Positions 4,781 to 45,051 of a stretch of 64,000 nt of DNA are shown piece by piece. Below the pieces are notes generated by a model that was not told the origin of the DNA, searched no databases, and saw only the letters and a list, made by a program, of their open reading frames with translations. Position numbers and translations under genes: made by a program. The stretch comes from a virus. Each line of letters starts with the position of its first letter. The first letter of the stretch is position 1. The DNA lies in IMG/VR virus record IMGVR_UViG_3300042261_000976, positions 4,627 to 68,626 of that record, one strand, 5' to 3'.

Positions 4781-5358
4781 TAAAGACATTTGAAGAATAT
4801 GATTACGTTCACGATAATAGTTTAGTTTGGGTAGTTGGAATCCCAAGCGGTGAGGCTTTACAAATACCACACGAGAACCTAAATCCTCTTTACGCTGAAA
4901 AATTAATATGGTACGATAATAAATATACTGGCGTTGGATTCTACGCCTTTAATGATGACGACATTTCCTTAGTTAAAAGATATATATCCCCTCCTAAAAA
5001 ATCTAAAGATTTAAAAGTTGTTCCACCAAAAATGAAAACAACTAATGGTCCTGATATAATGATATATAATCATCATTTTGATGATGCTTTGATAGATACA
5101 ATTGTTGGTATTATGCACGATTATCCAACAGAAATAGAACTTTATGTCCAAGACGAATGTATGGGCATAACATATGGTGATTATTATATCGAAATAGATT
5201 TAGAAGAAGGAAGAAGCCCTAGATATAGATTGGTAAAAAGACGTAATCTTTCATTCTCTTCTATAGGAATGGGAACAGGTTCCGATATTCTAGACAAATA
5301 CGGAGTATCTACTGATAGACAATTAATAGATAGAATAGAAACGGAATTATACACTTAA
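4777..5358 (+). CDS. hypothetical protein, N-term MIKTFEEYDY
   Basis: track ORF; CTS-like leader. Confidence 0.5.
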   Translation: MIKTFEEYDYVHDNSLVWVVGIPSGEALQIPHENLNPLYAEKLIWYDNKYTGVGFYAFNDDDISLVKRYISPPKKSKDLKVVPPKMKTTNGPDIMIYNHHFDDALIDTIVGIMHDYPTEIELYVQDECMGITYGDYYIEIDLEEGRSPRYRLVKRRNLSFSSIGMGTGSDILDKYGVSTDRQLIDRIETELYT

Positions 5359-6027
5359 CCCCTGTAACATCTCAATCATCTCCGGCATTGGAAACATATC
5401 AGACTTATCACTTCTGTAACTAACATGTGTCCATATTCCTGGTTGACCTCCAATAGCATTCTTACTAACATCCCACATATCTTCATTATAAGTTTTTGGA
5501 ATATTCCATTTATCACAAAGATAAGTTACTAAACTAGCTACTGAATTTATTTGTTGTGGAGTGTATTTTTCAAAATACAAATAATCTCTAAATGGTTCTT
5601 CAAACGTCAAAACATTATCATCAGGAATAGTTACTTTAGTTGTCCCTGCTGGATGGTACCCATTATCATCCACAGATAATCCTCCCCAATTACATATCTC
5701 AATAGCAATAGAAGACTTATTCAATAATAAGTTTCTAGACCCATAATCCGCAAATCCTAATTTTTGTAGAAATGTAGATTTTATTCCCAAATGATGGGCC
5801 CAAAACTTCGAAGAATATAATTGATATATTGTTCCGTCTCCTTGTACAACAAATTGTGTCGCAACCTTTTGTGGATCTTGATTCCACCAATCAATAACTC
5901 CTTGTGCTTTTGAACCGGATACTGTATGATGTAAAACTATTTGATTTTTAGGAGTTTCCTCTTTATAATATTGATTTTCAGAAAAATTTACTTGAACTAT
6001 TGTTGATAAATCTAGTGGTGTTGCCAT
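5347..6027 (-). CDS. N-acetylmuramoyl-L-alanine amidase (Amidase_2/PGRP/T7-lysozyme fold), endolysin-like
   Basis: IVLHHTVSGS, AHHLG, IAIEICNWGG, GIWTHVSYR, DKSDMFP zinc-amidase motifs. Confidence 0.75.
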   Translation of the reverse strand: MATPLDLSTIVQVNFSENQYYKEETPKNQIVLHHTVSGSKAQGVIDWWNQDPQKVATQFVVQGDGTIYQLYSSKFWAHHLGIKSTFLQKLGFADYGSRNLLLNKSSIAIEICNWGGLSVDDNGYHPAGTTKVTIPDDNVLTFEEPFRDYLYFEKYTPQQINSVASLVTYLCDKWNIPKTYNEDMWDVSKNAIGGQPGIWTHVSYRSDKSDMFPMPEMIEMLQGLSV

Positions 6028-6031
6028 GGTT

Positions 6032-6538
6032 TTAATATTTATTTTTGTAAGGGTTAATATCCATTTTTGCCATATTTTCCCTCATTTCTCTGTGTTTATC
6101 CACAAATTCTCTTTGTGGCAGATTCTTATCCATTCTAAATTCTATATCTTCTTCAAGATTTTGATCTAGATTTATTGGTTGAATTCTTTCTTCTAAAATA
6201 TCATCTAATATATTTGATAGAAATTGTCTGGTATCTCCAGTTGTTTTATAACAAAAGTCGTATTGTTTATCTTCGTCGTAAATAGAAAAGTTATCTATTG
6301 GAATAGAATTATCTAAATAAAAATTAAGAGTTCCTATATTTCCATCTTTTACTATATAATTTCCTTTTTCAAGGCTATATCTTTTAACGAAAGGATCTTT
6401 AATTTTAATAACTATTTGACCAGGACCTTTATTTCCTTCTTTTTGTGCTTCATTTGTTTTAGAAATACCAAAATCTTTCTTATATTCTTTGATAGTTCTA
6501 AACTTACGCATTGTTATACTAGACGCTACAACTTCCAT
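6032..6538 (-). CDS. hypothetical protein
   Basis: track ORF; internal Met MRKFRTIKEYKK has CTS-like pattern. Confidence 0.45.
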   Translation of the reverse strand: MEVVASSITMRKFRTIKEYKKDFGISKTNEAQKEGNKGPGQIVIKIKDPFVKRYSLEKGNYIVKDGNIGTLNFYLDNSIPIDNFSIYDEDKQYDFCYKTTGDTRQFLSNILDDILEERIQPINLDQNLEEDIEFRMDKNLPQREFVDKHREMRENMAKMDINPYKNKY

Positions 6539-7015: not shown

Positions 7016-7630
7016 TTAAAATGCTGGGGCTGCTTGAGATCCTCCTGCTGGTTGTGGAAACGCTGGTGCTTGTTGTGCTGGTGGTATCGCTTGAGCGGGT
7101 GGTGGCATTCCTCCTTGTGCTGGTGGCATTCCTCCTTGTGCTGGTGGCATTCCACCGGGAGCGCCTGGTTGTTGTGGTTGTTGTGCTTCCTTTTCTTTAG
7201 GAGTTTCTATTTTATTTTCATCTGGATTTTCTTTTGTGTTATCGTCTGTTTCTGAAATCTTTTGAATAATAAAATCTTCTTTTATATCATCAATCTTAAC
7301 TTGTTTATCATTGGTTAATTGCAAAGTCCATACTGGTTGACCGCCGTTTGGTTCATCTATTTTAGAAGGATCGTATTTCTTTATAATGACATCACAGTTT
7401 TCTAAATCTTCTACTGAGAATCTAATTATCATTTGGAAATAAAATTCGGCGTCAGCAAAATTTGTTATAATAGATCTTTTAGAAGCTGGTGAACTTACGA
7501 CTTGATCAACTGGAGCAGAGCTCATTGAGAAAGAACCGTTTTGAAACCAGTATGTAATTCTTTCTTTCACTTTCTTGATTATTTGATCTAACTCATAATC
7601 TGCTTGCATGAACTCCTCGAACATTTTCAT
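7016..7630 (-). CDS. hypothetical protein with C-terminal (GGMPPAQ)x3 P/Q-rich tail
   Basis: N-term MKMFEEFMQ; 21-nt tandem repeats at ~7080-7150. Confidence 0.5.
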   Translation of the reverse strand: MKMFEEFMQADYELDQIIKKVKERITYWFQNGSFSMSSAPVDQVVSSPASKRSIITNFADAEFYFQMIIRFSVEDLENCDVIIKKYDPSKIDEPNGGQPVWTLQLTNDKQVKIDDIKEDFIIQKISETDDNTKENPDENKIETPKEKEAQQPQQPGAPGGMPPAQGGMPPAQGGMPPPAQAIPPAQQAPAFPQPAGGSQAAPAF

Positions 7631-11169: not shown

Positions 11170-12918
11170 ATGTTTAATATTTTAACCTTTAATGAATTAT
11201 TAGAACAACAAAACATAGGTAGTTATAAAATACCAATGCCTGTAGTATATCCAAGTACAAATTATGCTGGAAAATGGACAGAACAGAATTATGATGATAT
11301 AGTTGGGCAATTAGTATCTTTTGACGGTCAAGAAAAAGAAATTCAAGATATTTATTCAGATAATGGAGAAATATTTTTTGTAGATAAAGACACTAATGTA
11401 TTTGACGTGAAAGGTAAATCAGTTGAAATAAAAAATAGAGTTCCTAGAGTTTATAATAAATTAGATCCTTACGGTGAAGAAGTATGGGAAGCATATCATA
11501 AATCACAAGGAAAATTAAACGGTAAATACATAAGATTTATTTTTGATATAGAAGACGAAAATAATAGGATAGCAGTTAGAAAAAATGTTCCTTATGAAAT
11601 ATCTTATTTCAATGGTGTTGATTATGTAATTAGAGCTGAACATGGAAATTTTGAAGTAGATCCTTTCTATGTTGAAGGTGAAGATTTTTTAGTAGTGACT
11701 CAAAAGGAACTTGATGAAAGAAGAAAATTGTGGGCGGAAAAACATCCATATGATCCTTATGGAGAAGAAATATGGGAAGGTATGAAAAATTATACAGAAT
11801 TTGTAAACGAAGCTAGAGCTTATCATATAAAGAAAGAAGATTACGTTCAATGTGGTGGAAATTTTGGATGTTATACAGTTGGTGGTAAAACTATAAAAGC
11901 AATGGTTCTTTGTAAAGGTAAATATGCCAAAGTATTAAATTCCAGATATAAAATGGATAATCACTATGAATTCGAGTTGGAATTCGAAGAACCTGTAGAT
12001 ACAAAGGACGAGAATAAACAAAAAATAAAAATTAAAACTTTTTATATAAATCAGAATCAGGTTGCAAATTTAAGAATTATAAAGAATAAAGATTTTTTAA
12101 GATGGAAAGCTGGATTCACTTTACCATATAAGGCGACATCAACATTTGATAAATGTATTAATAGATATGGTATGCAATTTCCTTATAAATATTATGATGT
12201 ATCTTATTTTGATGTGGACGCCGAAAAAAATGATATTGTATCTTTCTTACCAGCAAATAAGTCTAATCTAGTTGTAGATGAGAACGGCAACAATTTACCA
12301 GGAGAAAACGCTTATACTTCTAAATTTAGACAAAGTACTAAAGTTGGTAGAGTTATTAGAAAGTTGAATGATCAATTAACAGATCAACAAATTGAAGAGT
12401 TTACAACTAAATATAAAGCTAATTGGAATTATTGGAATAAAACTGGAGCAACATTTATTGATGTTGTTACAGGAGATAAAATAGCATATTGGTATGACTC
12501 AACAAGATATGCTCCTGGAAATGGAACATTAAATAATTCTTGTATGAGAGATCCAAGTAAATCTTATAGAATACAAGATTTCTATGGAAAATATCCAGAT
12601 AAGATTGCACTTTGTATTCTAGTGGATGTAGAATCTCAAATGCTTCTAGGTAGAGCATTAATATGGAAATTGGATAAACCTGAGGGTGTTATATTTATGG
12701 ATAGAATTTATTATATAAAACCAGAACACGAAAAATTAATTGAGGATTACGCTAAGAAACAAGGCATGCAAACAAAATTATCCAATTATCACTTAAACAA
12801 TAGAATTGAAGTGCATATTGATTATAAACCAGGTACACGTAATGGAAGCAGTATAAGTTTACCGTATTTGGATACTTTCCAATATGATAGTAATAAAAAG
12901 AAGTTTATAAATAAATGA
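11170..12918 (+). CDS. paralog family member 1 (C-terminal GGG[TS]LNNSCMR domain), carries 2x DPYGEE-W
   Basis: start moved to ATG 11170 (MFNILTFNELLEQ) after promoter motif; C-terminal ~230 aa shared with 14059..15219 and 15274..16455. Confidence 0.6.
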   Translation: MFNILTFNELLEQQNIGSYKIPMPVVYPSTNYAGKWTEQNYDDIVGQLVSFDGQEKEIQDIYSDNGEIFFVDKDTNVFDVKGKSVEIKNRVPRVYNKLDPYGEEVWEAYHKSQGKLNGKYIRFIFDIEDENNRIAVRKNVPYEISYFNGVDYVIRAEHGNFEVDPFYVEGEDFLVVTQKELDERRKLWAEKHPYDPYGEEIWEGMKNYTEFVNEARAYHIKKEDYVQCGGNFGCYTVGGKTIKAMVLCKGKYAKVLNSRYKMDNHYEFELEFEEPVDTKDENKQKIKIKTFYINQNQVANLRIIKNKDFLRWKAGFTLPYKATSTFDKCINRYGMQFPYKYYDVSYFDVDAEKNDIVSFLPANKSNLVVDENGNNLPGENAYTSKFRQSTKVGRVIRKLNDQLTDQQIEEFTTKYKANWNYWNKTGATFIDVVTGDKIAYWYDSTRYAPGNGTLNNSCMRDPSKSYRIQDFYGKYPDKIALCILVDVESQMLLGRALIWKLDKPEGVIFMDRIYYIKPEHEKLIEDYAKKQGMQTKLSNYHLNNRIEVHIDYKPGTRNGSSISLPYLDTFQYDSNKKKFINK

Positions 12919-13751
12919 TAACGACTTTTTTAAAATATAAACTGAATGAAGCATGGCAAGGAGATAAATCTATTTTATCACTTTTATTTTCAAGCTTTGG
13001 AAATCAATTTAAACCAGATTATATTGAAAACTATATAAATACATTAACTGTAGCCAATGATGAAATGATTGTTCAACAATCTGTTAATAATTTTAAGGAG
13101 TATGTTAAGACCGATCCTAAAATATTAAATAAACAGGAAGTTTATAATAAAATAGATAATACTCCTATCGTGTGGAGAAAGAATGATGCTCTATGTTATA
13201 AATTATATCAAGAAGTAAAAATGAAACATCCATGCACATCAAATCCATCTTGTTGGTGTTCAACTCTTTCTAATGGACAGAGTGTAATATTTTTAGCAAG
13301 AGATGCTTCACATAATTCTATATTACATGAATTATCCCATGCTATAGAACCTGTAGTTAAGATAGATCCTAAATTATTAGAAAACTTTAATTTTTCATAT
13401 AGTAAAAATCAAGTTGACTTTTTATTTAAGGCTATTACTGATTTCAGTTTGGAATTAAGAACAGATTTAACAAGAGAAAAAGAATATTTAAGTGATCCAA
13501 GTGAAGTTTGGGCAAGATTAAATAATTTAAAGATGTTTTTATATAAAAAGAATTTTTTAAGAATTCCAAATGCCGATGTTGATCAGTCTATAATTACTAA
13601 AATAATGACAGGTGAGGTATATAAATCATTGGATGATAAAGGTAAGAAAGAAATGTCTGACTCTGATTTTATGCAAATATTAGTTTTTCTAAATGTAAAT
13701 AAATTCCCACAAGTAAAACAATTTGTGGAGAATTCAACAAAAAATCAATAA
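12915..13751 (+). CDS. hypothetical protein with HExxH (ILHELSHAIE) motif, possible Zn-metallopeptidase
   Basis: single HExxH motif only. Confidence 0.45.
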   Translation: MITTFLKYKLNEAWQGDKSILSLLFSSFGNQFKPDYIENYINTLTVANDEMIVQQSVNNFKEYVKTDPKILNKQEVYNKIDNTPIVWRKNDALCYKLYQEVKMKHPCTSNPSCWCSTLSNGQSVIFLARDASHNSILHELSHAIEPVVKIDPKLLENFNFSYSKNQVDFLFKAITDFSLELRTDLTREKEYLSDPSEVWARLNNLKMFLYKKNFLRIPNADVDQSIITKIMTGEVYKSLDDKGKKEMSDSDFMQILVFLNVNKFPQVKQFVENSTKNQ

Positions 13752-13753
13752 AT

Positions 13754-14062
13754 ATGGACGGTTGTATGCAAGGCGGAATTAATGTAAGAATTATAGATAG
13801 TGATCCTTTATCTATAATAAATGATTTTGCCAGTAACGTAAATATTGTATATAATGGAGAAAAGAAGAATCAAAATCAACTCCTAAATGAATTATATTAT
13901 AAAGATTATAACAAATATAATAGAAATACAGGACCTTCAATGCCTCCACAAAATCCATTATTAAAAAAGCATGTCGATATTCCAGATGAGCCAAAACCAA
14001 TTGAACCAGGACAAGTTGATCCTGCCGCATTTTTTGGAAGTAGTTTGAAAGGGTTGTTTTAA
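13754..14062 (+). CDS. hypothetical small protein
   Basis: track ORF. Confidence 0.3.
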   Translation: MDGCMQGGINVRIIDSDPLSIINDFASNVNIVYNGEKKNQNQLLNELYYKDYNKYNRNTGPSMPPQNPLLKKHVDIPDEPKPIEPGQVDPAAFFGSSLKGLF

Positions 14063-15219
14063 TAATTACACACAAAAGGAGTACTATATAATCCAGTTTT
14101 TTTATCCTTTTTATAATTTTTGCTATAGTTGTAGTAATTAGGTATAACATGAAATGAATCTGTGTATGGCAAATTGAAATTTTTTGGATCGTTCGTTGGT
14201 GATACTAGAGTAACTATGAGTTTTTCGTGTGGATATTTTTTCCCAATATTTTTATACATCAACATATTATTTTTATTGGCATAATTTTCTAATTGGACTC
14301 TAGCAGCACCATCTGATGAATAAATCCTATCCATATAAACTCTACCATCGTCCAACCTCCATATTAATGCCCTTGCTAATAATTTATTTTTCTTAATATA
14401 TGTGGCCATTGCTATTTGATCTGGATATAGATCATAGAATTTTACTCTATATTGGGTGGAATCATATCTCATACAAGAATTATTGAGTGTTCCTCCTCCT
14501 TTTTTATATCTTTTTTCTTGATACCAATAGGATATATCATCTCCTGTAACAACTCTCAATTCTCCGCCTTTTTGATTGGCTTCATATTCAGCTTTATATT
14601 TATTTGAAAATTCTTCTATTTCAGGATCTTTAAGATCTGGATTTAATTTTCTAAGGAGTCTTCCAACTTTAGTTTGTTGACGAAATTTTTCAATATCTTC
14701 ATATGATTTATCAGCCAAAGCGACTTTTTTTGCTGGAACAAAAGATATATTATCTGCACTGTCTTTAACAATATCGAAATATGAAACGTCGAAGTATTCT
14801 CCCTTTTTTTTGAATTTTATCTCTTTTAGAATTTTTAAAAAATCTTTTGTAGCTTGAAATTTATATAGTTCACCAGCATTTAATTTTCTTTCAAGTTCAT
14901 CTTCTTTGGCTGCTTTTTCCGCGTTCTGTTTTTTCCATTCTTCTAATTTTTCGTCAGTAAATATTTCAACATTTTTTAATTGATATTTAGACAACTTTAC
15001 TTTCCCCTTTTTAATATAATATGATTTAGGAGCATCTTCAACTTCAAATACTATTACTTCTTTTTTTATGTCTATTACAGTGCCAATTTTACCGTCTAAC
15101 TTTACTTTATCTGCGCCATATCTAGAAAGGTCATATTTACCATTGAATAAGACTTTTGATCCTATTTCAAAATCTCCTATTTTTGCCTCATTTATAAAAT
15201 TTGAATAATCTAAAAACAT
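14059..15219 (-). CDS. paralog family member 2 (GGGTLNNSCMRY domain)
   Basis: FRQQTKVGRLLRKLNP..VTGDDISYWY..GGGTLNNSCMR..LLARALIWRLDDGRVYMDRIYS. Confidence 0.6.
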   Translation of the reverse strand: MFLDYSNFINEAKIGDFEIGSKVLFNGKYDLSRYGADKVKLDGKIGTVIDIKKEVIVFEVEDAPKSYYIKKGKVKLSKYQLKNVEIFTDEKLEEWKKQNAEKAAKEDELERKLNAGELYKFQATKDFLKILKEIKFKKKGEYFDVSYFDIVKDSADNISFVPAKKVALADKSYEDIEKFRQQTKVGRLLRKLNPDLKDPEIEEFSNKYKAEYEANQKGGELRVVTGDDISYWYQEKRYKKGGGTLNNSCMRYDSTQYRVKFYDLYPDQIAMATYIKKNKLLARALIWRLDDGRVYMDRIYSSDGAARVQLENYANKNNMLMYKNIGKKYPHEKLIVTLVSPTNDPKNFNLPYTDSFHVIPNYYNYSKNYKKDKKTGLYSTPFVCNY

Positions 15220-15273
15220 AAATTTAATTTATTTTAACCGTAAATTATTTTAAATTTATTTGATTTCAATTTA

Positions 15274-16455
15274 TCAATTTGATAATTGTAAACCTGGAAT
15301 CGCCTGATTTGAAAGAACTAAATCACCATCTTTTCTATAAACATGTATAAATGTATCAAAATACGGACGATAAGCATTATCTTTTGTTTTTAATGTAACT
15401 ACCATTTTGCCTTTACCTTGTTGTGTATCTCTTCTTGTTATCATATTAAATTTTTTAGCATAATTTTCCAATTGAACTGATGCTTCTGCTTTAACTGAAT
15501 ATATTCTATCCATATAAACTCTACCATCATCCAATCTCCAAATTAATGCCCTTCCCCACAATCTATCATTTTTAATATAAACTGCCAGTGCGACTTTATC
15601 TGGAAATTTATCGTAAAATTTAACTTGTGTTTGTGCAAATTCTCCTCTCATACAAGAATTATTAAGAGAACCACCACCTTTTTGATAATGTTTTTCATGA
15701 TACCAATAAGATATATCTTTTCCAGTTACAACTTGTATGTCTGGAACAGTGAATAAAGTTTCAACATACGCTCTAAAATTAGCAACATATTCTTCTATTT
15801 CTTGGTCATTTAATTTAGGATTTAATTTCCTAAGAATTCTACCAACTCTAGTTTCTTGTCTGAATTTTTCAGGATCTATTGGTTTTTCTGGTTTCTTTCC
15901 TTTTTCTGTATTTATTTTCTTAGATGGAATGAAACTTACCATATCTGTTTTTCCACTAACTACATCAAAGAAAGAAGAATCAAAATATTCACCAATTTTT
16001 TTGAATTTTATATCTTTCAAAACAAGATTAAAATCTCTTGTTGCTTTGAATTTATATACTTCACCGGCTTTAATTTTTCTTTGTAATTCTTCGTATTCTG
16101 GAGTAAGAACTATAAAATCTTTGAAATAATAATTTTCTACTTTTATTTCTGTAAGTTCATAATCTATTTGAATATCTACCTTAAAACCATTTCTTGTGAA
16201 TAAATCTATTTTATATTTTATTGGTTCATCTAAAGTGAAAGTTATAAAAGTAGATTTACCATAAGAACGTTGTGATTTCTCCTTAGTTATTTCTTTTACT
16301 GTTCCAGTTTTATCTAATAAATTTACTTGTTGTCCATACTTCGGTTCATTATAATAAGACATTCCTGGTCCTTTAAATACAACCTTTGAACCTACTTGAA
16401 AATCAAATATTTTAGAAGCAACTTCATTCAATAGGTCATTAAATCCATAAATCAT
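15274..16455 (-). CDS. paralog family member 3 (GGGSLNNSCMRG domain)
   Basis: same C-terminal domain and similar N-terminal half as 14059..15219. Confidence 0.6.
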   Translation of the reverse strand: MIYGFNDLLNEVASKIFDFQVGSKVVFKGPGMSYYNEPKYGQQVNLLDKTGTVKEITKEKSQRSYGKSTFITFTLDEPIKYKIDLFTRNGFKVDIQIDYELTEIKVENYYFKDFIVLTPEYEELQRKIKAGEVYKFKATRDFNLVLKDIKFKKIGEYFDSSFFDVVSGKTDMVSFIPSKKINTEKGKKPEKPIDPEKFRQETRVGRILRKLNPKLNDQEIEEYVANFRAYVETLFTVPDIQVVTGKDISYWYHEKHYQKGGGSLNNSCMRGEFAQTQVKFYDKFPDKVALAVYIKNDRLWGRALIWRLDDGRVYMDRIYSVKAEASVQLENYAKKFNMITRRDTQQGKGKMVVTLKTKDNAYRPYFDTFIHVYRKDGDLVLSNQAIPGLQLSN

Positions 16456-16488: not shown

Positions 16489-16908
16489 TTATCGTGGAAA
16501 ATCTTTGCCTCTTTCAGCAAAATGAACCTCGTATGTTTTTGATTCAAATTGATTTATTAAATAATTTTTAATTTCTTCTGTTTCGAAATATTTGCAAGAA
16601 AATATATCTATAAAAACATAATTTTTCTTTGGAAATGTATGGATGGAACAATGCGACTCTGCAATTATAACAATCCCTGTTATGCCTTCATCTTCTGGCA
16701 CTAAACCGCTATACGGGAACACGTAGGGTTGTGTTATTTTAGTCATTCCTATCATATCTGGGATGTTGTATAGGAGTTCATAAATGAACTTGTAATCGTT
16801 TAGTTTTTCAACATTACACTCATTTAAATCAAACATTAAATGAGGACCAAAACTCGTGTTTTTCATCTCTTCATACTTATTATTTTTTAACTTAGTCCAT
16901 AAGAACAT
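16489..16908 (-). CDS. speH: S-adenosylmethionine decarboxylase proenzyme, prokaryotic SpeH/SpeD type
   Basis: GPHLMFDL..IIAESHCSIHTFPKKNYVFIDIFSC matches the pyruvoyl-AdoMetDC processing region. Confidence 0.7.
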   Translation of the reverse strand: MFLWTKLKNNKYEEMKNTSFGPHLMFDLNECNVEKLNDYKFIYELLYNIPDMIGMTKITQPYVFPYSGLVPEDEGITGIVIIAESHCSIHTFPKKNYVFIDIFSCKYFETEEIKNYLINQFESKTYEVHFAERGKDFPR

Positions 16909-17000
16909 CGGATTATTTTTTATTTGAAAATGATATATATTTTCGTTATTTTTTCATTTTTTTCTAAAAATGAAAATCCTCACTGGATATGATATTAAAC

Positions 17001-17035
17001 AAAAAAACCATCTGTTATTTCAGATGGTTTTTTTA
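17001..17035 (-). terminator. intrinsic terminator hairpin (accatctg / cagatggt) with flanking A/T runs
   Basis: 8-bp stem, 6-nt loop, T-run on minus strand 3' of gene 17042..19330. Confidence 0.45.
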
Positions 17036-17041: not shown

Positions 17042-19330
17042 TTACCAACTTCCACCTGCTCCACCGCCTCCGCAAGATCCACCGCCGAATCCTCCGAAAC
17101 TTGATGAACTATCTCTCCTTCTCCTATCCTCTTCCTCTTCTTCCTCACGTTTACGTCTTCTTTCTTCTTCTCTTCTTCTTTCTTCTTCTCTTCTTTCTTC
17201 TTCTCTTCTTCTTTCTTCTTCTCTTCTTCTTTCTTCTTCTCTTCTTTCTTCTTCTCTTCTTCTTTCTTCTTCCTCCTCATTTCCTCTACCCACTCCAATT
17301 ATTTTATCAAGAGCGGCCAAAGTTGTACCAAGAAGAATAGAAACTCTCATAACATCTTTCATTGGAATATTATCATCCCATGCTTCTTCTCCATAAGGAT
17401 CTTCCTTGGCATGTCCGCCAGCTCCTTTATCCTTATTATATTGAGCTATAATAGCCTGGGCTTTTTGCGCAGAACCTCTATCAAGATAGCCGTTTTGAAT
17501 ATATGAATTTATATCTTCTAGTTTTTTATTCAATGTGGTAGGTCCAGCATCAACATATTTTTTAGCCTGCATTATATCATTGAATCTTTGAACAGGTTTT
17601 TCCATTTCAGTACCTAAGGCATGAGCTTTTCCAGCATATTGTGTTAATAACTGCATTCCCTTTGTTAAATCTGTCATGTAAATGGCACCTATTTGATCTA
17701 CAAAATTCTTCAAAGATTCTATATCGCCATCTTTCACATTAACTTGAGTGTCATATCCCATTTCTATTACTTTACCAGTATATTCTTTAGCTTTTGCTAA
17801 TTTAGCCATAAGAGCTCTTTTTACTGCATCGAATCCTTCAATATTGGATTTTATTCTTTGGAAATCTTGATCCATTTCTTTATACTGATTATAGTATGCG
17901 GTTACTCTTCCTAATAATTTTTGATATTTACCCAAAGATTCGTTAGAAACATCAATGTTTTCGAATTTCAATTCATTCATTATTCCTAAACATGTATTAG
18001 CAACATCTTTCATTTGAGTAGGAGCATCTTCATAACCTTTCAATTGATTAAATGTGTTAGTTACTGAATTTTTAGTTTTAATTATGCCTTGCTCAATTCT
18101 TTTTATATTTTCTAATGTTGCTATGTATCCATTAAGTAAAGTTGATACTTCCGTTAATCTTTGTTCATTGCTGATTTTTTTCTTTTGTAGTTCAGCGACA
18201 GCTTGTTTCATAGAATTAAGAACTTCATTGTCGTTAAAAATAGGATCTCCAGTGTCTATAAGATCTGCTATATTTAAGTCTAAAGCAGCCAAATCATCTT
18301 TTGTTCCTTTTATTTTTCTAGATAATTCTTTTCTTTTCTTATACGATGATGCTATTAGATAACCCACTAAACCTAATACTAAAGCTAATAAAAGGAATTC
18401 CCCAGCTCCAATAAAGAAACTTTTAACATTTTCTTTATGAATTTGTTCATATTTTTTATCTAGTTCTTTCTTTCTCTCTATTGGAATATTACCAAATTCT
18501 TGTTTCATTTTTCCTATTAATTCAGAAAATCCTTTTTCATAATTGCCTTCTTTAAAGTTTGATACAAGATAGTTTTCACCATATCTTTTACAAAGAGCGT
18601 CAGGCAATATATCTTCCATTCCATAACCTGTAGCAATCCACCATTTTCTATCGCCCATACTAGCCAATATAAGAATGCCATTATTGGCTCCTTTTTTACC
18701 TATTCCCCATCTATTGAAAGTTTTTGTTGCTAAATCTGAAGCATCTTGATCTTGTAACGAAGGTAAAGTGAGGACTGCTATTTCAACACCAGTAAGTTTC
18801 TCGTATTTGAACAATACCTGATTTAATGAGTCCTCGAATGTGGGTCTCATAAAATCCCCATAATCACTTATTAAAGCTATTCCATTACCATACTTGGCTG
18901 GTTGGACTTTTGTAACATCCATACTAACGGCAGAATTGGATGGTGGAGTAAAACTCCATTTATAATGAGTTGATTTATTGCTGGTATAACTGTCACATTT
19001 TAGATATGTTTTTACCATATTATAATTCAAATTAGTACCATTTAATTTGTTGAATTCCTGTAACTTTTTAATTATTTCTTCTTGATCATCATCACTAACA
19101 TCGGTATCTCTTGTTAAAGTCGCCGCGAATTTAGCCAAATCTATAGTTCCTTGTGGAACTTTTTGAGCCCATTCTATTTTAGTATTAAGATCAGCCGCTT
19201 GTACTTTAGGTGGTACTATACCTAAATTTAAGAGCATCATGAAGGTTGCCAACCAAGTTTTCCAACCTTCTTCTTCGTTTAACATGTCTGTAGTCAGATA
19301 TTTTTCGTATGATAATATAAATTCTGCCAT
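17042..19330 (-). CDS. TPM (TLP18.3/Psb32/MOLO-1) phosphatase-domain membrane protein with coiled coil, DPYGEEAW, (EEERR)n and Gly-rich C-tail
   Basis: GVEIAVLTLPSL..WGIGKKGANNGILILASMGDRKWWIATGYGMEDILPD; TM helix; C-term SFGGFGGGSCGGGGAGGSW like bacterial YgcG-type proteins. Confidence 0.7.
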   Translation of the reverse strand: MAEFILSYEKYLTTDMLNEEEGWKTWLATFMMLLNLGIVPPKVQAADLNTKIEWAQKVPQGTIDLAKFAATLTRDTDVSDDDQEEIIKKLQEFNKLNGTNLNYNMVKTYLKCDSYTSNKSTHYKWSFTPPSNSAVSMDVTKVQPAKYGNGIALISDYGDFMRPTFEDSLNQVLFKYEKLTGVEIAVLTLPSLQDQDASDLATKTFNRWGIGKKGANNGILILASMGDRKWWIATGYGMEDILPDALCKRYGENYLVSNFKEGNYEKGFSELIGKMKQEFGNIPIERKKELDKKYEQIHKENVKSFFIGAGEFLLLALVLGLVGYLIASSYKKRKELSRKIKGTKDDLAALDLNIADLIDTGDPIFNDNEVLNSMKQAVAELQKKKISNEQRLTEVSTLLNGYIATLENIKRIEQGIIKTKNSVTNTFNQLKGYEDAPTQMKDVANTCLGIMNELKFENIDVSNESLGKYQKLLGRVTAYYNQYKEMDQDFQRIKSNIEGFDAVKRALMAKLAKAKEYTGKVIEMGYDTQVNVKDGDIESLKNFVDQIGAIYMTDLTKGMQLLTQYAGKAHALGTEMEKPVQRFNDIMQAKKYVDAGPTTLNKKLEDINSYIQNGYLDRGSAQKAQAIIAQYNKDKGAGGHAKEDPYGEEAWDDNIPMKDVMRVSILLGTTLAALDKIIGVGRGNEEEEERRREEERREEERRREEERRREEERREEERRREEERRRKREEEEEEDRRRRDSSSSFGGFGGGSCGGGGAGGSW
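17110..17285. repeat. 15-nt tandem repeat (tcttcttctcttctt..) encoding (EEERR)n
   Basis: visible periodic repeat; generates spurious overlapping ORFs 17020..17298 and 17101..17340. Confidence 0.8.
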
Positions 19331-21431: not shown

Positions 21432-23277
21432 TGATTTAGGGACTACGTTCTCGGCAGTTGCAGTTATGGAAAATGGAGTACCTACAATTATTGTAAATAG
21501 TGAAGGAGAAAGAACAACTCCTTCTGTTGTCGCTTTCCTTGATAAAGGAGAGCGAAAAATTGGTAATCCAGCTCGTAGACAGGCTGTTACAAATAGTAAT
21601 AAAACTGTTCATTCCATTAAGAGGTTTATGGGAGAACATTATGATAGACTAACAAATGAAATTGATCGTTATGCTTATAAGGTAGTTAAGAAACATGATA
21701 TGCCTTATATTGAAATTGATAAAAAGGAATACTCTCCACAGGAAATTAGTGCAGTTATTCTTCAAAAGATGAAAAAAACTGCCGAAGACTATCTTGGTCA
21801 AAAAGTTGAAAGTGCTGTTATTACTGTTCCAGCATGGTTTAATAACGATCAACGTCAAGCTACAAAGGAAGCAGGTGAAATTGCTGGATTTAAAGTAGAA
21901 CGTATTATTAATGAACCTACTGCTGCAGCTTTGGCTTATGGGCTTGATAAGTTGAAGAAAGATATGAAGATTGTGGTTTTCGACTTTGGAGGTGGAACAT
22001 TTGACGTTTCTGTTCTTGATTCGGGTGATGGTGTATTTGAGGTTAAATCTACATGTGGAGATGTCCACTTAGGAGGTAACGATGTTGACGACGTTATCGT
22101 TGACTGGTTAGTAGATGAATTCAAGAAAGACAACGGAATAGATTTGAGAAAAGATCCAATGGCTTATCAAAGATTGAAAGATGCAGCTGAAAAGGCAAAG
22201 ATTGAACTTTCTTCTAATACAGAAACAGAAATAAATCTTCCTTATATCACTGCCATAGATGGCATGCCAAAGCATATGGTATCTAAATTGAGTATAAGTA
22301 AATTCGAACAAATTGCTGACAGTGTATTTAAGAGACTTATTCCAATTAGTGAAAAAGCTCTTAGGGATTCAGGAATAGAAAGAGATAAAATTGATGAGGT
22401 TATTCTTGTTGGTGGTTCAACTCGTATTCCAGCAGTTCAGAAAATAGTAAAAAGTATTTTTGGAAAAGAACCTAATAGAAGTATTAATCCTGACGAAGCA
22501 GTTGCTTGTGGAGCAGCAATTCAAGGTGGAATTATTAGTGGTGAAGTAACAGATATTCTTCTTCTTGATGTTACTCCTCTTTCACTCGGTATTGAAACAA
22601 TGGGTGGAGTAATGACAAGATTAGTAGAAGCTAATACTACAATTCCAACAGAGAAATCACAAATATTCTCTACCGCTTCTGATAATCAGCCATCTGTAGA
22701 AATTCATGTTCTTCAGGGTGAAAGACCAATGGCGAGTCAGAATAAGACTTTAGGTAGGTTTCATTTGGATGGTATTCCACCAGCTATGAGAGGTATTCCA
22801 CAAATTGAAGTAAAATTTGACATCAACGCTAATGGTATTCTTGAAGTTATAGCTATTGATAAAGCAACAGGAAAGAAACAGAACATTAGAATTGAGAATT
22901 CTTCAACTCTTCCTAAAGAAGAAATCGAGAGAATGAAGAATGAGGCAAAAGAAAATGAGGAAAACGATAGAAAAGAAAAGGAAAAGATAGATAAGCTCAA
23001 CCAAGCAGATTCGATGATTTTCCAGACCGAAAAACAAATCAAAGATTTCGGAGACAAATTGACAAACGAAGATAAGAACAATTTGAACGAATCTCTTGAT
23101 AAATTGAGAACAGCACACAAGGGTCAAAATTTAACAGATATTGACAATTGTATGAAAGAATTAAATGAAAAATGGAATTTGATTTCAACTCGAATGTATC
23201 AACAAACATCTTCACAACAACAGGGACCAAAAGAAGAACAACCTGTAGAAGATGTAGAATTTCAAGAGGTTAAGTAA
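21432..23277 (+). CDS. dnaK: DnaK (Hsp70) exon 2, bacterial DnaK type
   Basis: [54 protein letters not shown]-terminal EDVEFQEVK; near-collinear with E. coli DnaK. Confidence 0.9.
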
Positions 23278-23310
23278 AAAAAAGAGGGACTTAAGTCCCT
23301 CTTTTTTTTA
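23278..23310 (+). terminator. intrinsic terminator hairpin agagggac-ttaa-gtccctct + T8
   Basis: perfect palindrome immediately after dnaK stop; also serves the convergent minus gene. Confidence 0.55.
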
Positions 23311-24999
23311 TGTCCCATATGATATATCTGATGCTCCTCCAATATTCCACGTTGGACCTTTATAATCTTCATCTACCATAATTTTTCCTTCTCCACTACA
23401 ATCGTCACATTCTCCTCCCGTGCTTTTTCTGCCCCAACCTTTACAAGAAGGACATTCTATTTGTTTATAATGTTTTATTTTAGCTTTAGATTTTGGTTTT
23501 ACAACATCGTCAAATTGTTTATAAAAATCGTTTTCAATATTTGATTTTGGTTTTGATTTTGTTTTACTGGCTAAAAATGTACTTATTTCTTGTTCCTTTG
23601 ATTTTGATGATTTTACATTTTTAGATAGTTTTTCATCACTTGCACTCAAAGTGCCTGGTTCTACATACAATCTTAAAGTTTTCTCATCTTCATAATCTCC
23701 TCCGTGAAAAACTATCATCCATTTACCGTCTGTTTTTCTAACACCATCAAACTGTCCGATTTTACCATTATACTTACTACCTGGAAGATTATATTTAACG
23801 CGTTGTCCTTGTCGAAATGGTGAAGTAACTTTTTTACCAACAGGTTCCCATTTTCCTCCGCTATAATCACCATAATCTGAAGCTTTCTTAAAATCCCACC
23901 AATTATCATCATATGATTTATCGGTATCTACATATGGAGATATTTTCTTCTTTGGTTTCTCTACAACACCTAAACCTTGACAATGCTTACACGGTACTGG
24001 TAAAAGTAAGTCGTTCACATGATGTTGTGATGTTAAAGTATAACCTCTACCGTTACAATATTCACATTCATCGTATTTCGACGGATCTGGATTTCTTTTT
24101 TTCTTATTGTCGCCGTATGGCGATTTTTTCTTTTTTAATTGTGTTTCATTTGGTATAACTCCTTCGCCTCCACATTCATCACAAGGATCATCGTAAGTCG
24201 ACATAACAACACCGCTTCCCCCACATTCTTCGCATTCTGATCCGTCATTTAATTCTCCTTCTCCATCACATTCATCACAAGGATCTTCAGTTTCGATTTC
24301 TAAGGTTCCTGCCCCGTGGCAAATTGGACATTCTATGTCATCTTTATCTTCGTCTTCGTTTTCTTCTTCTTTGTCTAGTTTAAGAGCACGTAACATTTCT
24401 TCCTTTGAAATTTGTGGTAAATCTCGTCTCGCTCCGAAATCTGATATTTTCACCTTAAACGGTTCCGTTTGTTTTGGTTTTTCTTTTGGTTTAGTTGTAC
24501 CAACAACATCAACTATGCCTACTTTTCTAGCTATACTCCTTTCTCTCTCATCTTCTTCCCATGATTCTTCACCATAAGGATCTAAATCCTTCATAGCTTT
24601 TTCTTTCATATTATGTAGAATATAAGCACATTTATCTATCATGAAATCAAGAGTTTCCTTATGTTGTTCTCTTTTTGTTACTTTTATTCTTCTTTCATAA
24701 GTTTCTTGATTAAGATTATCTTTCGCTGTAAGTATATAAGTTATAACATCATCTACATCTACAATCTTCTTTATTGTAAATGTAAAATATTTCTCTACAC
24801 ACTTAGCTTCTTTCTCGTTACTATCTACTTCAAAATCATCATGTTTTAACATTCTTATTTCCTCTTCAGAGAATAAGTCAGCTGGACGTTTTTCTATTCT
24901 TTCGCGCTCTTCATCGTCGCGATGGTATTTTAGTTTACCAGAACTAAGTTTTCTTTTCAATTCTTCGTTTATCTTATTATATCTTTGAATATAATCCAT
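23308..24999 (-). CDS. DnaJ-type zinc-finger (7x CxxCxGxG) protein, no J domain; contains DPYGEESW
   Basis: CPICHGAG, CDECDGEG, CEECGGSG, CDECGGEG, CEYCNGRG, CKHCQGLG, CPSCKGWG, CDDCSGEG. Confidence 0.6.
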   Translation of the reverse strand: MDYIQRYNKINEELKRKLSSGKLKYHRDDEERERIEKRPADLFSEEEIRMLKHDDFEVDSNEKEAKCVEKYFTFTIKKIVDVDDVITYILTAKDNLNQETYERRIKVTKREQHKETLDFMIDKCAYILHNMKEKAMKDLDPYGEESWEEDERERSIARKVGIVDVVGTTKPKEKPKQTEPFKVKISDFGARRDLPQISKEEMLRALKLDKEEENEDEDKDDIECPICHGAGTLEIETEDPCDECDGEGELNDGSECEECGGSGVVMSTYDDPCDECGGEGVIPNETQLKKKKSPYGDNKKKRNPDPSKYDECEYCNGRGYTLTSQHHVNDLLLPVPCKHCQGLGVVEKPKKKISPYVDTDKSYDDNWWDFKKASDYGDYSGGKWEPVGKKVTSPFRQGQRVKYNLPGSKYNGKIGQFDGVRKTDGKWMIVFHGGDYEDEKTLRLYVEPGTLSASDEKLSKNVKSSKSKEQEISTFLASKTKSKPKSNIENDFYKQFDDVVKPKSKAKIKHYKQIECPSCKGWGRKSTGGECDDCSGEGKIMVDEDYKGPTWNIGGASDISYGT

Positions 25000-38687: not shown

Positions 38688-39326
38688 ATGGTAAACTCTT
38701 ATTCCCGTATAATTATAATTATGATTAAACTGCACTCCAGTCAATTTACAACTATCTTTATATGCTTGTCTTAACATCTTTACTGGATAATTTCCATTAA
38801 GTACAAAAGATTCTGATTTCCCGTGGCCATCTGAAGACCAGTCACCAATTAAAATAATAAATTTATGATCCTTTATAACGGGTTCATCGTCTACTTCCTC
38901 TTCATCTCCGAACTCGCCTTTATCATGCCATTTAATAATAGATTCATTGAATTTATAAAAACTTTTCAAATGTTTCATTGATTCATCAGTGCTCCAATCT
39001 TCTTCACCGTAAGGATCTTCGGGTGATACTATTTTTTTCCTTTCTTTATAATATACTATCATGTTAGTTGTTTCATCTACAATACTACTTGATGTTCCAA
39101 CTTGCATAACAGCCCCATGTCTAACTGGTTCGGAATTTCCCTCATAAATAAATTCCAATCCGCCATTATAGGAATATCTGGGCCAATATTTTACTCCTAA
39201 TATTCTAACTTCTTTTTTACCAAGATGTGTCCACAAAACATTATTCTCTATAAGTTCATTCAAATAATTTGAAGATTCTTCAAATCCCATAGATGATATT
39301 AAATCTTTGATGATTATTTTATCCAT
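38625..39326 (-). CDS. hypothetical protein with internal DPYGEEDW; candidate tail-assembly-chaperone-like (G) ORF directly upstream of the giant repeat protein
   Basis: position and overlapping -1 ORF mirror the lambda G/GT arrangement. Confidence 0.5.
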   Translation of the reverse strand: MDKIIIKDLISSMGFEESSNYLNELIENNVLWTHLGKKEVRILGVKYWPRYSYNGGLEFIYEGNSEPVRHGAVMQVGTSSSIVDETTNMIVYYKERKKIVSPEDPYGEEDWSTDESMKHLKSFYKFNESIIKWHDKGEFGDEEEVDDEPVIKDHKFIILIGDWSSDGHGKSESFVLNGNYPVKMLRQAYKDSCKLTGVQFNHNYNYTGIRVYHLKKDMKKLKKDKFVLNMTMV

Positions 39327-39339
39327 TATTGATATTTAT

Positions 39340-39786
39340 TTACCATATCTCCTCGCCATAAGGATCGTTTTTTAAGTATAAAAGGTCATTTTCACGAGCA
39401 TCATCTATTATATCTTCTATGTTTGATAACACTTCTATGGTTTTTTGGATTATAGATTCTATTTTATCTGGACTAATTTTAGCCATCCTTATAGAATTTC
39501 TAGCAAACTCTTCAATTTTATCAGTAACAGATATAGTCGATGGCCATATAGGATCTGGAATCTTTTTAAAATCTGATTTTTCTATATCTTCTATCCCTGT
39601 TTTTATCGACCCGTCTGAATTTTTATATATTCCACCACCAGCTGCATTAAAGACTGTTCCTTTTTTTATATTTATTTTTCTTCTATTAAAAACATCACTA
39701 ACATCTGTATCTTTTGTGGCTACATAATAAGAGTGATAATCTGACCAATCTTGATCTTCTTTTATGTAATTATAAAAACTTATCAT
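39340..39786 (-). CDS. hypothetical protein ending ..NDPYGEEIW
   Basis: C-terminal motif immediately before stop. Confidence 0.5.
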   Translation of the reverse strand: MISFYNYIKEDQDWSDYHSYYVATKDTDVSDVFNRRKINIKKGTVFNAAGGGIYKNSDGSIKTGIEDIEKSDFKKIPDPIWPSTISVTDKIEEFARNSIRMAKISPDKIESIIQKTIEVLSNIEDIIDDARENDLLYLKNDPYGEEIW

Positions 39787-40205
39787 TGATATTTATTCTT
39801 GTTTCTAGTGATCTCACCCTGAAGATTCAATATCTCTTTATTCAAAACATCTAGTTTTTGTTTTTGAATATTTATCTTTTCTTGTTGTTGTTTTGTAAAA
39901 TCTTGTTGATTTTTAGCATTATTTGGATCTCCAGGATTATTTGGCATTAAATCTCTTAAAGAATTTTGTAAATTTACAATCTCCTGACTACATAGTTGTT
40001 TTTGTTTACCCAATTCTGTTATTCTACCTTGAATATCTGTAACTTTTAAATTTAGAGATTTTTGTAAACCTTTATCTTGTTGTTGATTTTGTTGTGATTT
40101 TGCTGGATTTTGAGCATCTCCTTTTTCTATATTTAGATTAAGGTTATTCTGCATATCTGTAGATGTAACCAATTCATTAATAAATTCATTAAATTTTTTT
40201 ATCAT
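39783..40205 (-). CDS. Q/N-rich coiled-coil protein, N-term MIKKFNEFINE
   Basis: ATGA-coupled; CTS-like leader. Confidence 0.45.
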   Translation of the reverse strand: MIKKFNEFINELVTSTDMQNNLNLNIEKGDAQNPAKSQQNQQQDKGLQKSLNLKVTDIQGRITELGKQKQLCSQEIVNLQNSLRDLMPNNPGDPNNAKNQQDFTKQQQEKINIQKQKLDVLNKEILNLQGEITRNKNKYQ

Positions 40206-41110
40206 TAGAATGTGGTTTCATTTTTGATAGATAATTCTTTAACAGCAATAGAATTTTTAGAAATAAGCCATTTATTTCCATTTGAATCGAAATGTGCTAC
40301 TTTTATAGTATCACCAACTTTAACTTGTTCATCAAATTTATAGTTACCACCATTGGGTTTTCTGATCATCCATTTATTATTGTCTTCAGATTTAACTTTA
40401 TTCAATAATTGTTTAATATTTGAATATGGGGTATTATTTTGGATTAATCCCCATTTTAAAAAATTTCCTATAGCTACCCAAACATCTTTAGCAACTCCTC
40501 CCAATTTAAGATTATTTTGACCTATCGGAGTTTCATCTCTTTCCATATTTGTTAAAGCCGCTTTTATTGAACTAGCAATAGTTTCATCTTTTATTTGATT
40601 TGGTTTAGATTGTGCAATCATAGCCAATTTATCTAGTGTTGGTTTTATAGTATTAAATTGTTCTTTAGGTACATAAATAAATTGATCCTTAAATCCTGCT
40701 TTAGAAAAAGAATAATAAGGAACTCTAGCTCCCTCATCTGCTCCAATATAATTAAAATTATATGTATAAGCATTGTCTTTTATTGTAAAATCAACATCTT
40801 TTACTAATTTAACGGAAGCCACATTACCTGGATGTTGTTGCTGTTGTTTATTTGGATCCGTTGTTGTTCCTCTTTTACCAGCAATTTTCTTTTGAAGAGC
40901 GAGAATATTGTTTTCCAACTCTCTTAAGTGTGGCAATTTTTCTGAAACAGGAGGATCATTTTTTCTTTCTGTATTAGTCAGTTGAACATTTCTTTGTTCT
41001 TGATTCGGTACTTCTCTAGCAACTCTTTTTTGTGGTGTTACAACAGGCGTTGCAGTGGCAGCTCCTTGTTCGTATATTTTATTATTAGTAAATTCTGAAA
41101 ATCTTAACAT
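40205..41110 (-). CDS. hypothetical protein (301 aa), N-term MLRFSEFTNN
   Basis: track ORF. Confidence 0.5.
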   Translation of the reverse strand: MLRFSEFTNNKIYEQGAATATPVVTPQKRVAREVPNQEQRNVQLTNTERKNDPPVSEKLPHLRELENNILALQKKIAGKRGTTTDPNKQQQQHPGNVASVKLVKDVDFTIKDNAYTYNFNYIGADEGARVPYYSFSKAGFKDQFIYVPKEQFNTIKPTLDKLAMIAQSKPNQIKDETIASSIKAALTNMERDETPIGQNNLKLGGVAKDVWVAIGNFLKWGLIQNNTPYSNIKQLLNKVKSEDNNKWMIRKPNGGNYKFDEQVKVGDTIKVAHFDSNGNKWLISKNSIAVKELSIKNETTF

Positions 41111-41123
41111 AATACTATATATA

Positions 41124-44508: not shown

Positions 44509-45051
44509 ATGGTAAGAACTTTTGAAGAATATAGATATATTAATTTCGGAATGTTTGATGGTGCTGGTAGTAAAAAAGATCCCAACGAACCATTTTTTCT
44601 TGCAAAAAAACATAAATATTTTCAAGATCAAAGAGATGAAGCAAGAAGACAAGAAAGAGAAGCAAGAAGACAACGAGATGATATTAACTATATCAATGGT
44701 CTGGAAGCGTCTAGAAACCAACTACCTTTAATAAATAGGTGTATAGATATAATAGAAAAAGATCCAGATTCTATTGTTAGAACTAAATATGAAGAATCAG
44801 ATTATGGTAGTGGAATATATGGAATTCTTTTAAAAAATAAAACAGTAATAGTAACTAGAATAGACGGGAGCGATAGAGTCTCTTACTTGAAAATAAATAA
44901 AGTACTAATGTCAAGCACTAAAGAAAAGAAAATAAATAAAGACGTTGATGTGTATGGTGAAGAAAATTGGGAAGACGATAATATAACACCGTATGAAAAA
45001 TTATCACGTTTAGTTAAAGATTACGTCGAACAAAATGAAATTATATTCTAA
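44509..45051 (+). CDS. hypothetical protein with DVYGEENW variant motif
   Basis: MVRTFEEYRY leader; ATGA-coupled to next gene. Confidence 0.5.
   Translation: MVRTFEEYRYINFGMFDGAGSKKDPNEPFFLAKKHKYFQDQRDEARRQEREARRQRDDINYINGLEASRNQLPLINRCIDIIEKDPDSIVRTKYEESDYGSGIYGILLKNKTVIVTRIDGSDRVSYLKINKVLMSSTKEKKINKDVDVYGEENWEDDNITPYEKLSRLVKDYVEQNEIIF

Follow-up and report, generated by a model that had tools for sequence, protein, structure and literature searches.

What kind of protein is encoded by three related genes that lie close together in the DNA of a virus? The DNA analysed, called the window below, is a stretch of 64,000 nucleotides (positions 4,627 to 68,626 of IMG/VR virus record IMGVR_UViG_3300042261_000976), and the genes occupy positions 11,170 to 16,455 of it. 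A first-pass annotation made from the letters alone had proposed that they share an enzymatic domain of about 230 amino acids, which it could not place, and that they form a diversifying effector family. The analysis presented here makes it very likely that the genes belong to a large, phage-borne and previously unannotated family with a GNAT-like fold. The best model, guided by a predicted structure, is a new and very divergent branch of the GNATs, probably an enzyme with a non-canonical donor site that transfers acyl or aminoacyl groups to proteins or peptides. For the family we infer catalytic activity, donor, substrate class, packaging and injection; the complete picture of a transferase that is packaged in the head, injected and acts on proteins or peptides is tentative and leans somewhat to the doubtful side. 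The three genes are:

11170..12918, plus strand: long paralog, 582 amino acids; a leader-like N-terminus, two small modules ending in DPYGEE.W, then a complete standard family protein

14059..15219, minus strand: short paralog 1 (P0001), 386 amino acids; the copy that was modelled

15274..16455, minus strand: short paralog 2 (P0010), 393 amino acids; architecture as in short paralog 1

Products of 582, 386 and 393 amino acids were reproduced by gene calls on two independent assemblies of the locus. According to tblastn searches within the window the short paralogs are 46.8% identical to each other (E 1e-89), and the long paralog shares 32.7% identity with short paralog 1 (E 3e-48) and 40% with short paralog 2 (E 4e-47); a fourth copy was not detected in the 64 kb. 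A MAFFT alignment recovered every collinear block that had been listed before, namely DVSYFD, KFRQ.TKVGR..RKLN..L.D.EIEE, VVTG.DI.YWY, G.G(T/S)LNNSCMR, FY..YPD, RALIW.LD and MDRIY, with GNGTLNNSCMR, RKLND and FMDRIY as the variants of the long paralog. The genes are thus true paralogs. Their conserved region covers approximately residues 140-360 of the 386-residue copy, roughly 220-250 amino acids, in agreement with the size first proposed. Short paralogs 1 and 2 are collinear from end to end, and the long paralog is a short-type copy, including the N-terminal barrel, placed behind an extension of 204 residues.

Short paralog 1 was modelled with AlphaFold (AF2) and a 100-sequence alignment, with a predicted local distance difference test score (pLDDT) of 90.5 and a predicted template modelling score (pTM) of 0.78. 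Its parts, and the position of the Gly-rich loop in all three genes, are as follows:

15187..15219, minus strand: N-terminal leader MFLDYSNFINE of short paralog 1, residues 1-11, with the pattern Y-x-x-F-I-x-E; low pLDDT, residues 1-10 disordered

14959..15162, minus strand: small beta-barrel of short paralog 1, residues 20-87, followed by a long helix (residues 89-115)

14572..14862, minus strand: family-specific basic alpha/beta subdomain of short paralog 1, residues 120-216, with DVSYFD...SF.P..K and KFRQ.TKVGR..RKLN...EIEEF, the K.RQ..K.GR..RKLN part being a basic helix

14062..14562, minus strand: GNAT-like core of short paralog 1, residues 220-386

14467..14499, minus strand: GGGTLNNSCMR loop of short paralog 1, residues 241-251, between alpha1 and alpha2, with the invariant Ser248-Cys249

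15646..15678, minus strand: GGGSLNNSCMR loop of short paralog 2, residues 260-270

12517..12549, plus strand: GNGTLNNSCMR loop of the long paralog, residues 450-460

A standard family member has 360-410 residues and consists of a leader of about ten residues, a small beta-barrel with a long helix, the basic alpha/beta subdomain and a divergent GNAT-fold domain. The barrel gave a weak YdhK-like match (E 0.07). The core is composed of beta1 (220-224), alpha1 (227-233), alpha2 (253-263), beta2-4 (269-300) with R283, W287 and M-D-R-I-Y at 296-300, alpha3 (304-316) and beta5 (335-340), and PY.D is located at 351-354. In the model the order of elements, beta1-alpha1-alpha2-beta2-beta3-beta4-alpha3-beta5-(alpha4)-beta6, and the cleft formed by the splayed strands beta4 and beta5 are those of the GNAT core fold, with the same core topology as in RimI (7n1l), AAC(3), SSAT and Gcn5/PCAF. 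Foldseek comparison with the PDB gave FemX and GNATs as the best matches (E 5e-4), and the BFVD structure matches ranking below the family's own members were viral N-acyltransferases. The family differs from known GNATs by its Gly-rich SCM loop, basic alpha/beta subdomain and N-terminal barrel, by a reduced alpha4, and by the lack of detectable sequence similarity and of the Q/R-x-x-G-x-G/A motif, in the place of which there is an acidic loop. Prediction of the C-terminal domain thus yielded a GNAT fold and no structural phage domain, and the earlier suggestion of an enzymatic domain, possibly a transferase, gains support at the level of the fold from a confident GNAT-superfamily model with invariant residues on the cleft-forming elements.

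Conservation was mapped over 100-180 diverse members. The near-invariant positions, in the numbering of short paralog 1, are:

R180, G186 and E202: basic subdomain

W232, Y233 and Y238: alpha1

GGG(T/S)LNNSCM with S248 and C249: alpha1-alpha2 loop

R283, A284 and W287: beta3

M296, D297, R298, I299 and Y300: beta4

P351, Y352 and D354: after beta5

The SCM motif, with its Cys, was present in 307 of 308 sampled members. In GNAT enzymes the catalytic residues are positioned on beta4, on beta5 and at the start of alpha4, and the alpha1-alpha2 loop shapes the acceptor site. Conservation in the family is highest on beta4, behind beta5 and in the alpha1-alpha2 loop, and so marks the canonical active-site cleft. 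A search up to 16 residues after the beta4 DRIY detected motif A, [QR]xxGx[GA], in 0 of 296 members; the consensus at this position is an acidic T-x-x-D-S-D-x-x-L-F turn between beta4 and alpha3. In the model the core domain looks like an enzyme without the usual binding of coenzyme A (CoA). The absence of motif A suggests that the donor is bound in an unusual way, perhaps via the Gly-rich loop, or that it is not an acyl-CoA. Fem, L/F-transferase and ATE1, which are GNAT-fold enzymes dependent on aminoacyl-tRNA, also lack motif A.

How widely the family is distributed was addressed by searching 1.84 billion cluster representatives exhaustively with a profile. At E<=1e-3 there were 5,952 matching proteins, or about 5,950 family clusters when counted at 50% identity, and 2,886 of them remained at E<=1e-30. 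The family is almost wholly viral. Among 50,697 GenBank phage records it occurs only in five huge-phage assemblies and seven Cellulophaga Callevirus genomes, at 6-15 places in each huge phage of 0.63-0.74 Mb and once in each Cellulophaga podophage. Several viral contigs carry 2-4 tandem copies, and BFVD holds at least ten uncharacterised paralogs from 'uncultured marine phage'. The exact core motif was found in 5 of 185,579 species genomes; four of these cellular matches are in Bacteroidota (Puia, Chitinophagaceae, Sphingobacteriales) in contexts resembling mobile elements, and the fifth is on a small contig of a Pacearchaeota metagenome-assembled genome. On the Puia sp. P3 chromosome (L007, 877..7518) the family gene lies in an island with a phospholipase D-like nuclease, a PP-loop protein resembling phosphoadenosine phosphosulfate reductase, an M20/M28/M42-like peptidase and primase-polymerase-like open reading frames (ORFs); the island is probably a mobile element.

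No existing annotation covers the family. Sequence searches of Pfam, PHROG, NCBIfam, PADLOC and the PDB gave no match over the shared region, those of the PDB with two profiles no relevant one, and Pfam clan CL0257 (Acetyltransf_1 and relatives) had no hit from 180 family sequences at E<=0.01 or E<=0.001. None of about 300 retrieved members carried a name or a precomputed Pfam domain, and literature searches for 'LNNSCM' or 'DPYGEE' found no phage-related paper. A PcfJ-like identity, considered because of an 'SCM' motif, was dropped, since the 180 members had no PF14284 hit, plasmid homologs were not found and the literature was of no use. A relation to defence systems was also set aside, with no PADLOC hit.

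A second recurrent feature of the family is its N-terminus. The leader M-x(2-5)-Y-x-[DE]-F-[IL]-x-E-[SA]-K, exemplified by MFLDYSNFINEA, was found at the N-terminus of 223 of 303 sampled members (74%), with its aromatic residue at positions 4-7. P3, two residues ahead of the Glu, is I/L in 204 and P5 is D/E in 149 of the 223, and the search expression constrained neither. In phage T4 the prohead protease cuts off the capsid targeting sequence, MKTYQEFIAE, which suffices for foreign proteins to be loaded into the heads (PMC8442874; PMC5694885; PMC3012670). The family leader has the pattern of this T4 sequence and ends in an I/L-x-Glu site of the protease type. Similar leaders are present on unrelated ORFs of the window, such as MIKKFNEFINE, MNNIQTYNEYLNE, MKKYDQFVNE and MITTFLKYKLNE, and the gene next to a family member in L003 begins with MKIKKTYQEFIKES. 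Simple leader patterns matched 15-18 of the 89 window ORFs, against 2-4 expected from internal sequence or shuffled N-termini, and none of 2000 shuffles of the window N-termini reached the observed count. With the consensus M-x-(K/N)-x-[FY]-x-[DE]-[FY]-[IL]-N-E some 15-30 of the 89 window ORFs were collected, for example:

4335, 12915, 20093 (minus), 20248 (minus), 39783 (minus), 54096 (minus), 54353 (minus) and 57201 (minus): window ORFs with the leader

The leader was absent from the inspected N-termini of cytoplasmic enzymes (Hsp70, dUTPase, helicase, exonuclease, NadD and kinase). In L026, a relative with 47% G+C, as compared to about 29% in the window, it is kept through synonymous GC-rich codons, which indicates selection at the protein level. 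The internal proteins of T4, together with Alt, an enzyme that is injected and modifies proteins of the host (PMC8442874, PMC5694885, PMC3012670), provide the closest parallel: they have the same leader pattern and I/L-x-Glu site, and the leader is common to otherwise unrelated proteins of one genome. They differ in having no sequence relation to the family beyond the leader and in that far fewer T4 ORFs carry it; for the family, packaging is predicted from the sequence.

The leader also sheds light on the long paralog, the features of which are:

11464..11487, plus strand: first motif, DPYGEEVW, residues 99-106

11752..11775, plus strand: second motif, DPYGEEIW, residues 195-202, directly followed by the internal leader

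11782..11811, plus strand: internal leader-like MKNYTEFVNE, residues 205-214, which agrees with the leader at the N-terminus of the short paralogs and indicates where the fusion was joined

Both DPYGEE-W motifs described by the first-pass annotation are present in this gene. The internal leader is positioned exactly at the joint after the second DPYGEEIWEG, so that a protease cut there would free a family protein of standard size. On sequence comparison the long paralog is a fusion, since its ortholog on the sister contig L012 (373 amino acids, 51.5% identity) lacks everything upstream of the internal leader. Homologs of the N-terminal extension were not retrieved. The DPYGEE.W motif occurs 14 times in at least 12 window ORFs, frequently at the very C-terminus, immediately behind the leader or in between modules, four times in L012 and eight times in the first 50 kb of the 735-kb LR756501 (four of them in one ORF of 843 amino acids), and was absent from all other loci examined. 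A lineage-specific role in docking, as a linker or in processing is possible. The sites in the window are:

11464 and 11752 (plus); 17384, 19617, 19697, 20296 and 24565 (minus); 26013 (plus); 39000 and 39349 (minus); 44265 (plus); 54641, 57228 and 57529 (minus): DPYGEE.W

Do these copies diversify, as had been suggested? Across all paralog and ortholog pairs the synonymous divergence dS is saturated (0.96-1.8), with amino acid identities of 36-57%, those of the paralogs being 38-50%, so that the ratio of nonsynonymous to synonymous divergence (dN/dS) is not interpretable and gives no sign of positive selection. L012 has an ortholog of short paralog 1 as well (56.8% identity) and at the same site neither the adjacent S-adenosylmethionine decarboxylase gene of the window nor a third family copy. 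As far as sequences tell, the copies diverged long ago and have a constrained core, and variation is mostly in added modules: the N-terminal extension, an inserted barrel, and C-terminal zinc fingers or acidic tails. The idea of a diversifying effector family is thereby divided, in that rapid diversification finds no support and the effector part is strengthened by the T4-like leader in most members. The proposed divergence of N-termini holds for the 204-residue extension of the long copy and not for the short copies, which share their whole architecture.

The gene neighbourhood was inspected for hints on the substrate. Next to the three paralogs are:

12915..13751, plus strand: protein of 278 amino acids with HELSH...EYLSD; 4 nt (ATGA) are shared by its start and the stop of the long paralog, and the pairing is kept in L012

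13754..14062, plus strand: ORF of 102 amino acids, kept in L012 together with the long paralog and the 278-residue protein

16489..16908, minus strand: S-adenosylmethionine decarboxylase (AdoMetDC) gene, directly upstream of both short paralogs and in the same orientation; it lies downstream of a terminator hairpin at 17000-17035

The conserved motifs HELSH and EYLSD(P)SE of the 278-residue protein are reminiscent of gluzincins, and a metallopeptidase of this type is possible; a Pfam match was not obtained even at E<=10, and a single-sequence model (pLDDT 37.5) was unusable. C-terminal arrays of 3-15 DnaJ-type CxxCxGxG repeats are fused to 43 of 308 members. A divergent Zn peptidase resembling M20/M28/M42 enzymes adjoins and sometimes overlaps the family gene in seven loci from three backgrounds, which are Cellulophaga phages, chromosomes of Puia and other Chitinophagaceae, and two other viral contigs. 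Hsp70 is encoded within 5 kb of a family gene in 15 loci, including the window. The zinc-finger fusions, the peptidase and Hsp70 neighbours and the barrel domains lead us to favour a polypeptide as substrate over a small molecule or DNA, none of these hints being decisive. A scan for tRNA genes and promoters around the locus was uninformative.

In view of the above, the following mechanism appears the most likely. The GNAT-like domain would be an active group-transfer enzyme that moves an acyl or aminoacyl group to an amine of a protein or peptide in the cleft between beta4 and beta5. The catalytic site would be formed by Asp-Arg-x-Tyr on beta4, Arg and Trp on beta3 and Pro-Tyr-x-Asp after beta5. 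The GGG(T/S)LNNSCM loop could close over the substrate, with the Ser-Cys pair serving in acceptor binding or as a covalent relay. A cysteine-dependent reaction, one possibility of the first-pass annotation, with Cys249 as nucleophile is unproven, the alpha1-alpha2 loop in which it is located being one that normally binds the acceptor in GNATs. The donor would be bound in an unusual way or would not be an acyl-CoA; aminoacyl-tRNA, as used by Fem, L/F-transferase and ATE1, is one candidate. Most members would be packed into the prohead, undergo trimming by its protease and enter the host with the DNA on injection, like T4 Alt and the internal proteins, and the several paralogs of one genome may cover different targets. 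Other phage GNAT effectors are known: phiKMV Rac, the GNAT domains of injected polyvalent proteins and Mu Mom act early on host RNA polymerase, other proteins or DNA (PMC7824862). The family shares with them a phage-encoded GNAT fold and differs in that their GNAT or Mom sequences are recognisable, whereas it is seen by no profile library and has 6-15 copies per huge-phage genome.

Several observations weigh against this mechanism. The structural likeness is at the level of the fold only (TM-score 0.2-0.44 over about 100 aligned residues), a sequence-level link to any GNAT family was not found in Pfam, NCBIfam or the PDB, and because motif A is absent activity is not guaranteed. With respect to packaging, phmmer detected no homolog of T4 gp20-24, gp67 or gp68 in the 64-kb window, which is a small part of a genome probably larger than 500 kb. 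The only Pfam match to Portal_T4 belongs to an ORF of 139 amino acids, and a leader on one sixth to one third of the ORFs is much for head cargo. The peptidase-linked members (Cellulophaga, L032 and L035) have no clean leader, and in the record of Cellulophaga phage phi38:1 the homolog, gp037, carries no annotation as a structural protein. The peptidase and Hsp70 linkages are each limited to subsets of loci, and the latter may be plain synteny among related huge phages.

The alternative that survives best is that the GNAT-like module is catalytically dead and acts as a binding or scaffolding unit, for example as an abundant internal head protein or a ligand sensor, with the loop binding a partner. 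The missing motif A and the lack of sequence similarity to active GNATs would fit such a role, and T4 internal proteins with the same kind of leader are mostly non-enzymatic (PMC3012670). However, polar residues (S, C, D, R, R, D, several Y and W) are retained nearly without variation across about 6,000 clusters at less than 30% identity, and they are found exactly at GNAT catalytic positions, a pattern expected for an active site rather than a scaffold. Active Fem, L/F-transferase and ATE1 enzymes do without motif A as well. We consider a dead module unlikely.

Marginally less probable still is a donor-specific version of the preferred transferase mechanism, in which an enzyme like FemX, L/F-transferase or ATE1 transfers an amino acid from aminoacyl-tRNA to a peptide N-terminus or side chain. 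The basic subdomain would then serve to grip the acceptor end of the tRNA, and preparing or trimming the substrate would fall to the neighbouring peptidase. The family resembles these enzymes in having a GNAT-like catalytic domain without a CoA loop. It differs in lacking, in the model, the second GNAT lobe of Fem, residues 120-216 forming a short alpha/beta subdomain instead, and its sequences matched none of the FemAB, Leu_Phe_trans (Aat) and ATE_N/ATE_C (Bpt) signatures of Pfam. The only contextual link is the tRNA-rich neighbourhood of one lineage.

An enzyme that modifies nucleic acids like phage Mu Mom, with the basic subdomain binding DNA or RNA and the core modifying a base so that phage DNA is protected or host RNA disabled, appears improbable. 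The conserved basic subdomain ahead of the GNAT core is in line with it, Mom-type GNATs are known in jumbo phages (PMC7824862), and injected or early anti-restriction roles would suit leader-bearing cargo. On the other hand, no sequence match to Mom or any DNA-modification family was found, up to 15 divergent paralogs per genome are unexpected for one DNA modification, and the DnaJ zinc-finger fusions and peptidase neighbours point to polypeptides. A polyamine N-acyltransferase tied to the adjacent AdoMetDC and modifying spermidine-type amines is very improbable, because this adjacency is missing in L012 and all other loci, polyamine acetyltransferases match no better than other GNATs, and the multi-domain architecture with its zinc-finger and peptidase contexts is unexpected for a small-molecule enzyme. 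Equally remote is a cysteine hydrolase or protease on a GNAT-like scaffold with the invariant Cys as nucleophile, to which the invariant Ser-Cys pair, and invariant Asp and Arg residues that could form a catalytic set, would lend themselves.

The setting of the locus is that of a very large phage. Genes typical of such phages in the window encode Hsp70, a DnaJ-zinc-finger protein, AdoMet decarboxylase, a TPM-domain protein, IF3, dUTPase, a PAS/histidine-kinase/receiver protein, a vault-shoulder/SPFH protein and NadD. Among public records the closest are the 'uncultured phage' assemblies LR756501-4 and LR745206 of 0.63-0.74 Mb. The first 50 kb of LR756501, beginning with two family members in tandem, show partial synteny with the window; the synteny and these records indicate that the window is a piece of a huge phage of this group. 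On viral contigs L002-L005 and L022-L033 a 413-residue subfamily, the closest GenBank matches of which are the 634- and 642-kb phages LR745206 and LR756502, stands in a conserved block of PrkA, DUF444, SpoVR, a PG_binding_1/Amidase_2 lysin, the family member and Hsp70. The window, too, has parts of this block, namely the amidase 5347..6027 and ORFs 6032..6538 and 7016..7630. Candidates for a T4-like head module in the window were rejected: the ORF run 43313..30785 (minus), with no Pfam head-protein match, and ORFs 62150..63259 and 45051..45968, which are M16-like and NadD-like instead. Other observations in the window are:

17042..19330, minus strand: TPM-domain protein of 762 amino acids with a transmembrane-like segment, DPYGEEAW, a C-terminal (EERR)n repeat and a Gly-rich tail; followed by the hairpin at 17000-17035, a strong bidirectional terminator

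21466..23277, plus strand: full-length Hsp70 (E 1.6e-235)

23308..24999, minus strand: adjoining protein of 563 amino acids with several DnaJ-type CxxCxGxG stretches, a leader-like N-terminus and DPYGEE.W; a J domain was not detected

30785..33202, minus strand: vault-like phage protein of 805 amino acids with a major-vault-protein shoulder (E 1.6e-27), Vault_3 repeats (E 2.4e-12) and weak SPFH/Band 7 similarity

33255..33722, minus strand: PhageMetallopep family protein (E 8e-7)

45051..45968, plus strand: NadD-like nicotinate-nucleotide adenylyltransferase (PDB E 5e-20)

49379..52312, plus strand: hybrid two-component sensor kinase of 977 amino acids with receiver, multiple PAS, HisKA and HATPase_c domains

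58959..59378, plus strand: the 139-residue ORF, downstream of a 5'-3' exonuclease; likely source of the Portal_T4 match (E 2e-11), phmmer with T4 gp20 E 8e-4, far too short for a portal

60556..61074, minus strand: ORF of 172 amino acids assigned to IF-3 from its N-terminal sequence only; Pfam IF3_N and IF3_C match in the window

62150..63259, minus strand: M16-like processing peptidase (PDB E 1.5e-4)

A broader scenario may be put forward as a speculation that is unlikely to hold in all its parts. Huge phages of Bacteroidota would inject a cohort of head-packaged proteins with T4-type leaders, DPYGEE.W serving to join modules or as a site of processing. Most expanded among the cargo would be a new class of GNAT-fold enzymes without a CoA loop, which use the Gly-rich Ser-Cys loop for non-canonical transfer on host proteins, for example dependent on aminoacyl-tRNA or with a Cys relay, the 6-15 paralogs each being tuned to another target. 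What the analysis provides is the placement of some 6,000 unannotated phage protein clusters in the GNAT fold with defined invariant residues to mutate, an immediate experimental handle on the family. If active without a CoA loop, the enzyme would extend the chemistry known for the GNAT fold. The T4-like leader offers a simple predictor of the injected protein cargo of uncultured huge phages, and its likeness to the T4 packaging signal suggests that this signal is much older and wider spread than the T-even phages.

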